This document shows positions 7,186-11,475 of a DNA stretch of 11,725 nucleotides, in pieces. Within the stretch, counting starts at the first letter, position 1. Each line of letters opens with the position of its first letter. The notes beneath the pieces are model-generated. The model was not told the origin of the DNA. It did no database searches and saw nothing but the letters and a program-made list of their open reading frames with translations. A program made the translations under genes and the position numbers. The DNA is from a virus. The stretch is taken from the UHGV virus genome UHGV-0243446; one strand, given 5' to 3'.

Positions 7186-7575
7186 TTAGTCAGCGAAGGT
7201 TAAGACGAGAATTACCTTAATGATGTCTGCTACAACAGACACGGCCATAGATAAACCAAAGACAATCCAAGCCATAGAGATGTCTTCACTACCATCGTAT
7301 AGAGTTCCGTAATCACTGGTGTAAGGCGTAAATGTCGCGCCTTGATACAACAGGTATAAGCTTGAACCATAGAGGATAAATGCAGATATCCCTTGTATTG
7401 CTATGATCACCAGAATCATGAAACGAGCTGATCTATGCGCCCAAGCCTGGCTTATTTTTTCTGATAGAGATTTCGCAATAAAAGCATGCGCTAAGCCGTA
7501 AATTGTCGAGATTTCCAACATCCCCAAAAAGCTTGCTATAGCGGTTCCAACCATAATCGCCCCTTGCGTGATCAA
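7186..7575 (-). CDS. Small polytopic membrane protein (3 predicted TM helices) in the rex/immunity-region position
   Basis: Track ORF begins with TTG overlapping the cI stop. An ATG about 7554 with AAGGGG RBS is likely the real start (about 122 aa). Three hydrophobic segments of about 22-25 residues. Downstream of cI on the same strand, as rexAB is in lambda. Confidence 0.6.
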   Translation of the reverse strand: MITQGAIMVGTAIASFLGMLEISTIYGLAHAFIAKSLSEKISQAWAHRSARFMILVIIAIQGISAFILYGSSLYLLYQGATFTPYTSDYGTLYDGSEDISMAWIVFGLSMAVSVVADIIKVILVLTFAD

Positions 7576-8288
7576 ACCAGCCTTAGTTTTGTCTCAATTG
7601 CAACGCCTATAATCTTGCAGTTTCCATTGATTGGCACGAGAGGCCATGCAGGATTAAGTCCCTTGAGGTATTTATTTCCGCCGTCGATTATCAGCTTCTT
7701 GAATGTTGCTTCGTTAGAGTCAGAAAGTTTTGCTATGACCAAGCTGCCGTTGATCGCCTCCCTTCCGGTATCGAAAAGAACGAATGTTCCCTCTGGAATG
7801 CTTAACCCAACCGGTGCCGTCATTGAATCACCTTCCACTTTAAGCCAGAACGCATTACCTTGAATATGCGCGTCAGACTCAAGCCAAACATCTATGTCTT
7901 TAATGGTGTATGGTTCGCATGCTTCACACCACGAGCCAGCCTGGATACTGCTTAACACCGGATACCTCTTTCCTGCTCTGTATTCCCCTGCATACCTTAC
8001 GTTGGCATCGCTCTTAAGGCTTTCTGCCTGTTCTGCAACCTTGGCAGCAATTGACTGGCTAAAATCAGCAATTGAGACTTGCAACAGTCGTGCAAAACCA
8101 GATGCAACCTCAACGTTTAGCGCGTTTCTGCCATTAAGATAATGCCCTACCGCTCCTTGGGTGATACCCAGTTCATCAGCGATTGAGTATTGGGTTATTC
8201 CCAATTCTTTCTTTTTTGACTCATACAAAGCCTTAAGCCGCTTAGCGTCTTCGAGCTGTTCTGTCGTCAGTGATTTTTTATTTTCCAT
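7572..8288 (-). CDS. cI: cI-type phage repressor (HTH N-domain plus S24 LexA-like autoprotease C-domain)
   Basis: N-terminus MENKKSLTTEQLEDAKRLKALYESKKKELGITQYSIADELG resembles lambda cI. Ala-Gly cleavage site in IQAGSW. Catalytic Ser in GDSM and Lys in FKKL. Start codon abuts the operator region. Confidence 0.92.
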   Translation of the reverse strand: MENKKSLTTEQLEDAKRLKALYESKKKELGITQYSIADELGITQGAVGHYLNGRNALNVEVASGFARLLQVSIADFSQSIAAKVAEQAESLKSDANVRYAGEYRAGKRYPVLSSIQAGSWCEACEPYTIKDIDVWLESDAHIQGNAFWLKVEGDSMTAPVGLSIPEGTFVLFDTGREAINGSLVIAKLSDSNEATFKKLIIDGGNKYLKGLNPAWPLVPINGNCKIIGVAIETKLRLV

Positions 8289-8394
8289 AGCTTAATTCTA
8301 ATAGCTAAGGTACTTAAACTAAAAATACCCTGAGTATTGATTGCTTTGAATACCTGTAGTATTCTTTGTTCATGGTTAATAACGGAGAGTGCAT
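8289..8394. promoter_or_regulatory. OR operator region with divergent PRM and PR promoters
   Basis: Dyad sites AATACCCTGAGTATT (8324-8338) and GAATACCTGTAGTATTC (8348-8364); possible weak third site about 8299-8316. PR: -35 TTGATT (8337-8342), 17-bp spacer, -10 TATTCT (8360-8365). PRM on the minus strand: -10 TAGAAT (8300-8295), weak -35 TTTAGT (8323-8318), start at or near the cI AUG (leaderless). Confidence 0.65.
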
Positions 8395-8589
8395 ATGATT
8401 CGAATGACACTTGCCGATTACGCCAAAATCCATGGACAGGCTAAAGCAGCCAGTGACTTTGGTGTAATCCAGTGCGCTATCAGCAAGGCCATTCTGGCAG
8501 GCCGTAACATTATGGTTACGGTAAAGCCTGATGGCAGTGTGATTGGAGAGGAAGTTCGTCCTTTCCCAAGCAACAAGAAAAACAAATAG
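8395..8589 (+). CDS. cro: Cro repressor
   Basis: Product [64 protein letters not shown] resembles lambda Cro. GGAGAG RBS at 8384-8389. The track start at 8389 is a GTG; ATG at 8395 is preferred. Confidence 0.88.
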
Positions 8590-8697: not shown

Positions 8698-8976
8698 ATG
8701 CAACTTACAAGTACTCGCAAGAAAGCGAATGCAATTACAAGCAACATCCTGAATCGAATTGCTGTACGTGGTCAGCGAAAGGTTGCTGATGCATTAGGGA
8801 TTAATGAATCGCAAATTTCGCGATGGAAAGACAGCTTTATCCCAAAGATGGCCATGCTTCTGGCTGTGCTGGAGTGGGGTGTTGAAGACGAGGAATTAGC
8901 GGAGCTGGCAAAGAAAGTAGCCATGGTGCTGACAAAAGAAAAGCCTCAAGACTGCTGCAACAGTTTTGAGGCCTGA
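8698..8976 (+). CDS. cII: cII transcriptional activator
   Basis: ATG at 8698 with AAGGAA RBS. Product ...ESQISRWKDSFIPKMAMLLAVLEWGV... resembles lambda cII (KSQISRWKRDWIPKFSMLLAVLEWGV). The track start at 8611 lies inside nutR and has no RBS. Confidence 0.85.
   Translation: MQLTSTRKKANAITSNILNRIAVRGQRKVADALGINESQISRWKDSFIPKMAMLLAVLEWGVEDEELAELAKKVAMVLTKEKPQDCCNSFEA
8700..8745 (-). promoter_or_regulatory. PRE-like cII-dependent promoter (TTGC-N6-TTGC on the minus strand at 8731-8744)
   Basis: Plus strand reads GCAA-TTACAA-GCAA inside the 5' end of cII, the position of PRE in lambda. The -10 element is not confidently located. Confidence 0.5.
8930..8972 (-). terminator. Intrinsic terminator on the minus strand (oop-RNA-like antisense terminator inside the cII 3' end)
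   Basis: 12-bp stem GCCTCAAGACTG/CAGTTTTGAGGC with a 6-nt loop (8943-8972). On the minus strand it is followed by a U-rich tract (complement of ACAAAAGAAAA, 8932-8942). Confidence 0.5.
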
Positions 8977-9010
8977 TGTAGAAAGACTGGATCAATCCAC
9001 AGGAGTAATT

Positions 9011-9172
9011 ATGACAAAACGTCGTAAGAAATACCAGGAAAAAGAAGAGATTCGACACCCTGATTCACCTGAGGGATTAGTGGTAGCCGCAGCAAATAAC
9101 AGGGCGTTCGCAGAGCGCCTTGTTGGTGTTTACAGACTAGCCAAAGCAGGAGTGAAGCATGGGCGTCGTTAA
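9011..9172 (+). CDS. Hypothetical small basic protein (53 aa) between cII and the replication initiator
   Basis: ATG about 9011 with AGGAG RBS about 6 nt upstream; its stop overlaps the start of the downstream O-like ORF. The track's longer version begins with TTG at 8966 inside cII. Confidence 0.35.
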   Translation: MTKRRKKYQEKEEIRHPDSPEGLVVAAANNRAFAERLVGVYRLAKAGVKHGRR

Positions 9173-10049
9173 GTTAGCTGATTACAGGCATAACCCTGTA
9201 CAACATCAGGAGGCATCCAGTATGGGGTATGTCTCTATACACCGCCAGTTTATGGACAGCAGGCTCTATAAGGACTCTCAGGCAGTACATCTTTGGCTTC
9301 ACTTAATCCTCAAGGCTAATCACGAATCTACTGTCGTCAATACGGATATCGGTCCGATAACTGTTGATCGCGGTCAGATGATAACTGGACGCCCGTCGCT
9401 GGTCAGAGAAACATTCATCCCCGACAACAAAGTTCGGAGCTTATTACGGACTTTTGAGTCGAAAGGGATGCTTAATATTTGCTCGATGGGGAAGAAATTT
9501 AGCCTGTTTACAATCGTTAAATATGACGATTTTCAGGCAAAAAATTGTCCAACGGTTGTCCAACGGTTGTCCAACGCAAACACCAGTAATGGCGCGGCTC
9601 TCAGCGGAGATTGTCCAACGGTTGTCCAACGGTTGTCCATAAACAATAATATAAATAATATCTCTAATACTGACGTATTAGAGAGTGCCACAGCAGACAA
9701 AAAGTCTGACAAGAAAAAACCTTCCGTCAGCTGTCAGGATGTTGTCGATGCTTACCACGAAATCCTTCCTGAAGCGCCAAGAATCCGCGCACTGAATGAC
9801 AAGCGTAAAAACCAGATCCGAACGTTCTGGCGCAAAGCCGGAGTGATAACCCGCCAGCTTGACGGGCATGGGTTCACGATGCAGGACTGGAGAAATTATT
9901 TGAGCTACGTAGGCGAAAATTGCCGATGGATGTTCGAAGAACGCCCAAACCATCAACGCGGAACCGTCTGGCACAAAAAGGGATTTGATTTCCTGCTTAA
10001 CGACAATACCTACCTGAAAGTTCGTGAGGGTGAACACGATGACCGATAA
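9159..10049 (+). CDS. Replication initiator (lambda O-like / replisome organiser) containing the origin iterons
   Basis: Sits in the O position and is translationally coupled to the helicase. Iterons and an AT-rich tract lie inside the coding sequence, as ori-lambda lies inside O. An alternative start at ATG 9222 has a strong AGGAGG RBS. Confidence 0.7.
   Translation: MGVVKLADYRHNPVQHQEASSMGYVSIHRQFMDSRLYKDSQAVHLWLHLILKANHESTVVNTDIGPITVDRGQMITGRPSLVRETFIPDNKVRSLLRTFESKGMLNICSMGKKFSLFTIVKYDDFQAKNCPTVVQRLSNANTSNGAALSGDCPTVVQRLSINNNINNISNTDVLESATADKKSDKKKPSVSCQDVVDAYHEILPEAPRIRALNDKRKNQIRTFWRKAGVITRQLDGHGFTMQDWRNYLSYVGENCRWMFEERPNHQRGTVWHKKGFDFLLNDNTYLKVREGEHDDR
9545..9643. repeat. Phage replication origin iterons: six copies of an 11-bp repeat TTGTCCAACGG in two triplets
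   Basis: Copies at 9545-9577 and 9611-9643 with 11-bp register. Followed by an AT-rich tract (9641-9665) and a 9-bp inverted repeat CTCTAATAC-TGAC-GTATTAGAG (about 9660-9685). Confidence 0.75.
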
Positions 10050-11475
10050 TTTTTATGCGCCGCCCCATAGCATCGAGGCAGAGCAGGCGGTTATTGGTGG
10101 ATTGCTTCTGGATGATGACAGCAGTGAGCGCGTCCGGAAAGTTCTGGCGATGCTGAAGCCTGATTCATTTTACAGCCGACCACACAAAATCCTTTTCGAA
10201 GAAATAACCAGAATGCACCGGGAGCAAAAGCCAGTAGATGGGCTGACGCTTTTCGATGAACTGGAGCGCAAATCGTTAACGGCGTCTGTTGGCGGTTTTG
10301 CTTATATCGCTGAGATCGCAAAGAACACGCCAAGCGCAGCAAACATCGTTGCCTATGCAATGCAGGTTCGTGAAACCGCAATGGAACGCTACGCCATCAA
10401 CCGCATGACTGAAGCGACGGAATTGCTCTATTCCCGCAACGGAATGACTGCAACGCAGAAGTACGAAGCTATTCAGGCGATTTTCACGCAACTGATAGAT
10501 CATGCAAAAACCGGATCGCGTCGCGGCCTTCGCTCATTTGGTGAGGTCATGGAAGACTGGGTTAGTGACCTTGAGAAGCGATTTGACCCATCAGGCGAAC
10601 AACGGGGAATGAGCACAGGGATCCCATCGCTGGACAGGATGCTGTCACCGAAAGGTCTGGTGAAAGGCTCTCTGTTTGTCATTGGCGCCCGCCCTAAGAT
10701 GGGGAAAACGACGCTATACAGCCAGATGGCAATCAATTGCGCAGTGCATGAGAAAAAGCCCGCTTTGATGTTCAGCCTTGAAATGCCAGGTGATCAGATA
10801 CTGGAAAAACTGGTAGGGCAGAAGTCTGGTGTTAACCCGAATATTTTTTACCTTCCGGCGACAAATGACGCTGATGACGGCTATCAGGGTGATTACGATG
10901 GTGACTTCAACAGGGCGATCGAAACAGCCAATCGCTTGAGTGAAATCGACCTGCTTTACATCGACGACACGCCGGGATTATCTCTGGCTCAAATCGTCAG
11001 CGAAAGCCGTCGAATCAAGCGAGAAAAAGGATGTGTTGGCATGATTCTGGTCGATTACCTGACACTAATGACCGCTGAGAAGGCCGATCGCAACGACCTT
11101 GCTTACGGCATGATCACCAAAGGACTGAAGAACCTTGCCAAAGAGCTTGATTGCGTTGTTGTGCTTCTGACACAGCTTAACCGCGCACTGGAAAGCCGAA
11201 CCAATAAACGCCCATTACCAAGTGACTCACGAGATACAGGGCAGATTGAACAGGATTGCGATTATTGGGTCGGGATCCATCGTGAAGGCGCTTTTGATGA
11301 CAGTGTTCCACCTGGTGAAACTGAACTAATCCTTCGTCTCAATCGTCATGGCAATACCGGCACGGTGTATTGCATTCAGGCAAATGGCGCTATTTATGAC
11401 ACAGACCAACAGTCTGCTGAAATGCGCCGCCGTGAACGCGAGGAACCGCAGTCCAAGAAGAAAGGAGGATTCTGA
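10039..11475 (+). CDS. DnaB-family replicative DNA helicase
   Basis: N-terminal PHSIEAEQAVIGGLL motif typical of DnaB. Walker A GARPKMGKTT; Walker B-like ILVDYLTLM. ATG 10039 with GAGGGTGA RBS overlaps the O-like stop. The track start at 10024 is a GTG. Confidence 0.9.
   Translation: MTDNFYAPPHSIEAEQAVIGGLLLDDDSSERVRKVLAMLKPDSFYSRPHKILFEEITRMHREQKPVDGLTLFDELERKSLTASVGGFAYIAEIAKNTPSAANIVAYAMQVRETAMERYAINRMTEATELLYSRNGMTATQKYEAIQAIFTQLIDHAKTGSRRGLRSFGEVMEDWVSDLEKRFDPSGEQRGMSTGIPSLDRMLSPKGLVKGSLFVIGARPKMGKTTLYSQMAINCAVHEKKPALMFSLEMPGDQILEKLVGQKSGVNPNIFYLPATNDADDGYQGDYDGDFNRAIETANRLSEIDLLYIDDTPGLSLAQIVSESRRIKREKGCVGMILVDYLTLMTAEKADRNDLAYGMITKGLKNLAKELDCVVVLLTQLNRALESRTNKRPLPSDSRDTGQIEQDCDYWVGIHREGAFDDSVPPGETELILRLNRHGNTGTVYCIQANGAIYDTDQQSAEMRRREREEPQSKKKGGF

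Follow-up and report, generated by a model that had tools for sequence, protein, structure and literature searches.

In phage lambda, the junction between cII and the replication initiator gene O contains a short sequence of 33–35 base pairs (bp) that carries the -10 region of the pO promoter, the start of the antisense oop RNA, a Shine-Dalgarno sequence and the bases ATG ACA AA. The ATG is the start codon of the 299-amino acid (aa) O protein itself, and the lambda replication module uses a P loader, not a helicase of its own. Hayes et al. (2012; PMC3349717) described a 33-bp conserved region at this place and noted that lambda ‘is naturally missing’ a small orf between oop and O. In phages HK97 (gp53), Sf6 (gene 42) and IME10 (Orf53) a small gene does lie between cII/oop and the initiator gene; it overlaps the latter by 14 nucleotides (nt), and a gene for a DnaB-type helicase follows downstream. 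Phages P22 (orf48) and HK620 (hkaW) have in the same slot, and starting at the same ATG, a gene for a charged 48-aa protein of the DUF2740 family (PF10872). Its stop codon overlaps the initiator start by 8 nt (ATGAGTAA), and the initiator gene is again followed by one for a DnaB-type helicase. The stretch analysed here, virus genome UHGV-0243446 (11,725 nt; referred to below as the window), carries at this junction an open reading frame (ORF) of 53 codons on the plus strand (ATG 9011–9013, TAA 9170–9172, from the window sequence and its ORF list).

The product of this ORF, MTKRRKKYQEKEEIRHPDSPEGLVVAAANNRAFAERLVGVYRLAKAGVKHGRR, has 14 Lys plus Arg against 6 Asp plus Glu residues, a mass of 6.1 kDa and a pI of 10.7. 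A preliminary description of the window had pointed to a basic 53-aa ORF between cII and the initiator, with a good AGGAG ribosome binding site and a stop codon overlapping an O-like start, and every one of these features was found where it had been placed. Its remark that cII is followed almost directly by O in lambda also holds, since the lambda boundary ATG starts O, in agreement with Hayes et al. (2012; PMC3349717). The ORF is not new: it has been annotated for years as HK97 gp53 and Sf6 gp42. A tblastn search showed the HK97 Gp53 protein and the Sf6 gene 42 protein to be 100% identical to its product, so that the window ORF is a member of the HK97 gp53 family with no difference from it. 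In the closest phages it appears as ‘Orf53’ (IME10) or as a hypothetical protein (mEpX2), and 97 phage records encode the protein. The profile phrog_1331 (‘unknown function’) matched it over its full length (E=1.4e-37, residues 1–53 on profile positions 1–53). The observation as such is therefore an ordinary one, the rediscovery of an annotated hypothetical gene. What is new here is its context in a three-gene module, the recognition of orf48 as a non-homologous analogue, a hairpin inside the ORF, and an initiator Shine-Dalgarno sequence that is kept by synonymous choice.

Of 5426 complete E. coli genomes, 561 contained a 204-bp cassette that includes the ORF (8986–9189), and identity was ≥99% in nearly every case. 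The ORF thus occurs in roughly a tenth of complete E. coli genomes, Shiga-toxin prophages included, and also in many Salmonella and Shigella phages. When 1.84 billion representatives were searched with an HMMER profile, the gp53-type family amounted to 24 clusters at 50% identity, made up of small proteins only; no larger relatives were detected. No Pfam family matched the ORF (E≤0.01), NCBIfam gave no match, and a sequence-profile search of the PDB produced a chance match only (E=8.4). In the literature searched for a function of gp53, orf48 or DUF2740, these were mentioned only as unknown ORFs and no function was assigned; published constructs merely carry the 53-aa ORF along.

The behaviour of the frame was followed in 258 related loci, which comprised 112 unique DNA sequences and 73 protein variants. 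It was open in all 258, and insertions and deletions were of whole codons only. In 18 diverse loci, ranging from Escherichia to Serratia, Rahnella and Brenneria (57–100% protein identity), the ORF was always intact, with 52–55 codons. Among these 18 loci, the Nei-Gojobori ratio of nonsynonymous to synonymous differences per site (pN/pS) was 0.32 for the whole ORF and 0.24 for the central codons, while the median pairwise ratio of the corresponding substitution rates (dN/dS) was 0.13–0.17. Third codon positions varied in 52 of 52 alignment columns and second positions in 28 of 52. Further, 80 viral contigs encoding the identical protein differed in their DNA at six sites only, all of them third positions. 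Residues K7, Q9, E12, E13, P20, G22, L23, V24, A27, G39, R42 and A44 were 90–100% conserved, with third positions varying freely. This substitution pattern shows the protein sequence to be under purifying selection and the frame to be kept open far beyond chance, and the ORF is almost certainly a real gene of the gp53 family. Conservation and codon substitution across relatives were the check that the preliminary description had proposed, and the ORF stood up to it, with a single case of fusion to the initiator. In that case (L253; IMGVR_UViG_3300012248_000001, locus 1201–2190), loss of 1 nt close to the 3′-end of the ORF generates an in-frame fusion of 329 aa, which is either natural or an assembly error.

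An AlphaFold2 model based on 35 sequences predicted two helices, at residues 21–29 and 31–49, with a mean predicted local distance difference test (pLDDT) score of 67.7 and a peak of 85 over residues 31–40. The N-terminus (residues 1–20) is basic and probably disordered; the C-terminal two-thirds are predicted to be helical, with hydrophobic residues in a heptad-like stripe. A 4-3-4-3-4-3 spacing separates the conserved residues L23, A27, N30, A34, L37, Y41 and A44, a pattern that suggests either a short coiled coil or helices packed as a hairpin. A Foldseek search of the PDB gave no match.

The small ORF always opens a module composed of itself, an initiator gene and a DnaB-type helicase gene, whatever the class of the initiator. 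The gene following the initiator coded for a DnaB-type helicase in 214 of the 218 viral loci with enough flanking sequence, in all 17 genome loci, and likewise in HK97 and Stx phage 1717. Among the four exceptions, three were artefacts due to an inserted gene or a frameshift, and the fourth was locus L042. The initiators themselves belonged to at least three classes among the 258 loci. Of 83 loci with an identical allele of the ORF, 42 had an initiator of the Sf6 gp43 type behind it and 41 one of the lambda O type, and 40 of the 83 showed a mosaic break at position 9189. Mosaic joints flank the ORF, at about 8968–8986 and at 9189. The first ten initiator codons (MGVVKLADYR, 9159–9188) lie before the second joint and travel with the small ORF as one cassette, and all initiator classes found behind the ORF begin with MGVVK(L)AD. 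These first 8–10 codons are common to at least three initiator classes that are otherwise unrelated, up to the mosaic joint at 9189. The N-terminus of lambda O (MTNTAKILNF) is a ClpX recognition signal, and MGVVKLADYR, which shows a similar pattern, might be a degron.

The left neighbour was less constant than the right one. In at least four of the 18 diverse loci (L005, L008, L015 and L018) it was not CII, its place being taken in these Enterobacterales prophages by a KilAC/ANT-domain protein, a YdaT-type protein or a weak beta-clamp-like protein. For comparison, 80 loci with a lambda-type P gene (L427–L506) had neither the 53-aa ORF nor orf48. Sixty of these included the boundary sequence, whose ATG there opens an O gene of 299–312 aa. 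Modules with a DnaB-type helicase thus carry a gp53-type or an orf48-type ORF and lambda O-P modules carry neither, a contrast that is suggestive rather than proven because the lambda-P set is nearly clonal (≥98% identity). The preliminary description had called the ORF ‘extra’ and ‘inserted’. This is appropriate relative to lambda; in other respects ‘inserted’ gives the wrong picture, since the ORF is the normal first gene of replication modules with a DnaB-type helicase and it is lambda that represents the module type lacking it.

The last 14 nt of the ORF overlap the start of the initiator gene (ATG at 9159), so that the ORF ends 11 nt past the initiator AUG. An overlap of 14 nt with the long downstream ORF was found in 254 of the 258 loci, and one of 17 nt in two; of the two exceptions, one locus was truncated and the other had an initiator with an internal stop. 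The annotations of Sf6, HK629, HK97 and Stx 1717 agree in placing the ORF directly upstream of the initiator and overlapping it. This conserved overlap fits translational coupling. The initiator nevertheless has a Shine-Dalgarno sequence of its own, located inside the small ORF. The Gly47 codon that forms part of it (9149–9151) was GGA or GGG in all 112 unique sequences and never GGC or GGT, which preserves GGAG or GGGG, whereas Gly39 of the same ORF was encoded by GGC or GGT in 95 of the 112. The restriction at Gly47 indicates that the initiator keeps its own ribosome binding site, which is held by synonymous choice. A helix hiding this Shine-Dalgarno sequence and the AUG was suggested by single-sequence folds and was rejected: in the 112 sequences 71.4% of the alignment cells were paired, as against 72.0% in shuffled controls, and no excess covariation was seen.

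RNAalifold analysis of the 112 unique sequences returned a single consensus structure, a hairpin within the ORF. Its core in the window (9102–9120) is GGGCGUUC-GCA-GAGCGCCU; the hairpin lies 38 nt upstream of the initiator ATG, and its minimum free energy (MFE) is -16.6 kcal/mol (z=-5.0). Hairpin cells were paired in 87.6% of cases, compared with 33–49% when the partner strand was slid, and the covariation score was 0.31, compared with ≤0.11 for slid controls and 0.21 for shuffles; none of 500 shuffles reached the observed value. Most stem pairs are hard-wired by a conserved (A/P/S)-F-A-E-R motif. The informative pair is that between the first base of codon 32 and the third base of the Arg36 codon, which was GC in 41 sequences, GU in 25, CG in 24, UG in 18, UA in two and unpaired in two (n=112). 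Accordingly, of the 67 sequences with Ala32 (G..), 66 used CGC or CGT for Arg36, and of the 45 with Pro32 or Ser32 (C.. or T..), 44 used CGG, AGG or CGA; the rare Arg codons used in the hairpin support its retention. On a tree built without the hairpin columns, parsimony required five and four class changes for the two columns and six joint steps, which implies at least three co-occurring changes. When synonymous codons were redrawn according to the gene's own usage, the mean MFE was -3.7 ± 0.33 kcal/mol, compared with -9.6 kcal/mol observed over 47 cluster representatives, and none of 300 such nulls was as stable. Judging from these comparisons, the hairpin is maintained by compensatory and synonymous changes. 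Two other readings of the hairpin were rejected: it is not an intrinsic terminator, as no U-tract follows the stem in any clade, nor a double-stranded DNA palindrome serving as a protein site, since the frequent and accepted G-U pairs at the covarying position indicate selection on the plus-strand RNA and not on the DNA. No description of the hairpin was found in the literature searched. The hairpin exemplifies selection on RNA structure within a very small coding gene, which bears on how synonymous sites in such genes are read.

The ORF shares its first 10 bases with the boundary sequence mentioned above for lambda, which is common to lambda, P22, HK620, Sf6, VT2-Sakai and others. It was 100% identical in VT2-Sakai, and lambda differed from the window at three of 33 positions; in the Sf6 record the region is labelled ‘bsq5 boundary sequence’. 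It contains the 5′-end of oop, the pO -10 region, a Shine-Dalgarno sequence and the start codon of whichever gene comes next, and it is at the same time a mosaic recombination joint. The AGGAG element that precedes the 53-aa ORF is the one that serves O in lambda. On the minus strand, TGT-CATAAT (9016..9008) reads as an extended -10 region, with the same element in lambda, and by homology with lambda the oop transcript would start at position 9000. The 5′-end of the oop-like RNA would thus lie 1 nt from the Shine-Dalgarno sequence of the ORF (9001–9005). This RNA is antisense to the final ∼41 nt of cII and to the intergenic region, cII being the known target of oop. It was identical at 61 of 63 bases to the experimentally sequenced oop small RNA of P22 (PMC13397905), and the P22 record has an oop promoter and terminator annotated at equivalent relative positions.

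Both pO and the oop terminator were identified by homology; a consensus promoter and terminator scan called neither, pO because of its weak -35 region and the terminator because its loop is longer than the scan allows. No Rfam family matched anywhere in the window (E≤1), so that the oop-like RNA and the hairpin in the ORF belong to no curated family. The preliminary description had considered that the region might serve as the promoter of an oop-like RNA instead of coding for a protein. The promoter is indeed there, but ‘instead’ is wrong because the ORF and the oop promoter coexist, only the first 6 nt of the ORF being part of the promoter. The substitution analysis of the 18 diverse loci revealed no -35 region or other constraint at the nucleotide level in codons 4–13. 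The synonymous sites of codons 1–13 were unconstrained (synonymous differences per site, pS, 0.69), and no conserved -35 region or upstream element therefore accounts for the body of the ORF.

The orf48 family appears to be a non-homologous occupant of the same slot. P22 orf48, used as a positive control, scored E=2e-28 on DUF2740, in contrast to the window ORF with its lack of any Pfam match, and homology between gp53 and orf48 was rejected, as hhalign gave a probability of 0.67% over 11 columns. In the P22 orf48 mRNA a hairpin is predicted 39 nt ahead of the start of gene 18, compared with 38 nt before the initiator in the window. This hairpin, predicted in P22 (L020, 1647–1668) and HK620 (L021), has 8 bp, is GC-rich (CAGCCUGG-UCGAUU-UCGGGCUG) and encodes the family's most conserved motif, QPGRFRAE. 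The 66 sequences available for it were too similar for covariation, and many third positions outside the stem were also invariant. In VT2-Sakai (L424, NC_000902.1), the 171-nt gap between cII and O, which is unannotated, contains an intact 48-aa ORF of the orf48 type that overlaps the O start (record positions 12357–12503).

Taken together, these data show the 53-aa gene to be the first cistron of a three-gene replication module, and roles can be proposed for its overlap, its hairpin and its product; we give this explanation, taken as a whole, a probability of about one half. Ribosomes that terminate on the small ORF, 11 nt beyond the initiator AUG, would help to set the amount of initiator, as a coupling superimposed on independent initiation, and the hairpin might tune this coupling step or message stability. 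The 6-kDa protein, with basic tails on a short amphipathic helix that may form a dimeric coiled coil, would assist the initiator and helicase machinery at the origin as an accessory factor and would not be a lysogeny regulator. Considered separately, this role of the protein in replication is proposed tentatively, at odds somewhat worse than even. A more far-reaching idea, which as it stands is rather unlikely, is that the gp53-type protein, and convergently that of orf48/DUF2740, is the dedicated third component of modules with their own DnaB-type helicase. It could then be an adaptor that assists the initiator in loading the phage helicase with no DnaC- or P-type loader, and the hairpin a previously undescribed cis-element setting initiator dosage. 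If true, this would explain why the lambda O-P module has neither. The ORF lies where the lysis-lysogeny switch meets the replication genes. Should the initiator and the helicase need its product as a partner, this would supply a missing piece in the account of helicase loading by P22/HK97-type phages, which have a helicase of their own, and the product would offer a small and well-defined target for controlling prophage induction.

Several points weigh against the explanation we favour. The function given to the protein is a prediction, the literature searched assigning none, and the protein has no relative in Pfam, NCBIfam, PDB sequences or Foldseek, the AlphaFold2 model being only moderately confident. 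A specific contact with the DNA-binding domain of the initiator is made less likely by the fact that one and the same allele works with three or more classes of initiator. Coupling may be dispensable, given that the initiator has its own Shine-Dalgarno sequence and that the occluding helix lacks covariation. Finally, the association with DnaB-type helicases may reflect shared ancestry rather than function, and the lambda-P loci with which it was contrasted are nearly clonal.

An improbable alternative, if one to be taken seriously, is that the protein has nothing to do with the mechanics of replication and acts as a small effector, for instance a CIII-like protease inhibitor stabilising CII or the unstable initiator, or a host-takeover or anti-defence protein that is simply carried in the early-right operon. 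Its size and predicted amphipathic helix resemble those of small phage effectors, cII is the usual neighbour, and the cassette moves between phages as a ∼99% identical unit, as accessory genes often do. However, linkage to the initiator is absolute and involves an overlap, while linkage to cII is not absolute; the ORF is absent from lambda-type O-P modules, whose phages face the same hosts; and no similarity to the lambda CIII family was seen (no Pfam match at E≤0.01).

The small ORF might also be a pure translational-coupling leader whose peptide has no role of its own. Coupling by leader peptides is known for the replication initiators of plasmids R1 (tap-repA, with the antisense RNA CopA) and ColIb-P9 (repY-repZ, with Inc RNA), which share with the window a short ORF overlapping the initiator start, an antisense RNA just upstream and a conserved leader hairpin. 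The near-invariant overlap at the stop codon, the P22 orf48 family, which shows the same design in a non-homologous sequence, and the oop RNA ending 1 nt from the leader's Shine-Dalgarno sequence all recall such systems. The likeness stops there: among the 112 sequences the initiator ribosome binding site was not found sequestered in a structure opened by the leader, being instead accessible and selected, and a pseudoknot like that of ColIb-P9 is impossible with the 3-nt loop of the window hairpin. In addition, the peptide is conserved, with low dN/dS values that reflect purifying selection also outside the hairpin and the overlap. A pure leader is thus quite unlikely. The preliminary description had offered ‘a real regulator or coupling peptide’; the substitution pattern favours a real gene selected at the protein level, but a role as coupling peptide alone is not supported, for the amino acids are conserved, the initiator keeps its own Shine-Dalgarno sequence and the occluding helix lacks covariation.

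Even less probable is that the RNA hairpin is the conserved element and protein conservation its by-product. It is true that the most invariant residues (F33, A34, E35 and R36) are encoded by the hairpin, and that codon choice there favours pairing far beyond what the amino acids impose; the hairpin, however, covers 27 of 162 nt, and residues outside it are also 90–100% conserved with free third positions. That there is no gene at all, the stretch mattering only as promoter and 5′ flank of the oop RNA and the open frame being incidental, has a negligible probability: the overlap of the pO -10 region with the start codon and the 10 bases shared with the boundary sequence would suit it, but it is contradicted by a codon periodicity that extends over all 53 codons, by the frame being open throughout the 258 loci with whole-codon insertions and deletions, by the free synonymous sites of codons 1–13, and by an ORF that stays intact in the four of 18 loci in which cII is absent upstream.

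The coordinates of the ORF, the elements around it and the neighbouring genes are collected in Table 1.

Table 1. Features at and around the cII–initiator junction of the 11,725-nt window
Feature	Position	Strand	Description
Lambda-Cro-type gene	8389–8589		Upstream of the cII-type gene
cII-type activator gene	8698..8976	+	Pfam Phage_CII PF05269, E=1.9e-44; usual left neighbour
oop-like antisense RNA, ∼67 nt	9000..8934	-	5′ hairpin, terminator hairpin 8974..8941, U-tail; predicted fold -25.8 kcal/mol
Boundary sequence ACTGGATCAATCCACAGGAGTAATTATGACAAAAC, 35 bp	8986..9020	.	Matches to many phages span precisely this stretch, 97–100% identity
Shine-Dalgarno AGGAG of the 53-aa ORF	9001..9005	+	5 nt before the ATG; read from the sequence
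pO-type extended -10 TGTCATAAT	9008..9016	-	Covers the ORF start codon plus the three bases after it
53-aa ORF	9011..9172	+	HK97 gp53 / Sf6 gp42 / IME10 Orf53 family, PHROG 1331
Conserved mRNA hairpin	9098..9124	+	Codons N30–V38; 12-bp stem in the window, 3-nt loop
Initiator Shine-Dalgarno AGGAG	9148..9152	+	Inside small-ORF codons A46-G47-V48
Replication initiator, O-like, Sf6 gp43 type, 296 aa	9159..10049	+	phrog_345 ‘replication initiation O-like’, E=5.8e-85
Origin-type iterons TGTCCAACG, 5 copies	9546..9631	.	Inside the initiator gene; pattern positions
DnaB-family replicative helicase	10024..11475	+	Pfam DnaB 5e-31, DnaB_C 3.3e-60; third gene of the module

The five copies of TGTCCAACG form two clusters that encode a repeated peptide, CPTVVQRLS, and the Sf6 record has a putative rep_origin annotated at the equivalent place; the promoter scan mis-called these iterons as promoter-like sites. 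An ORF for a hydrophobic, membrane-protein-like product of 129 aa (7186–7575, minus strand) lies directly downstream of the cI-type repressor gene (7572–8288), a location which is that of prophage-expressed exclusion genes.

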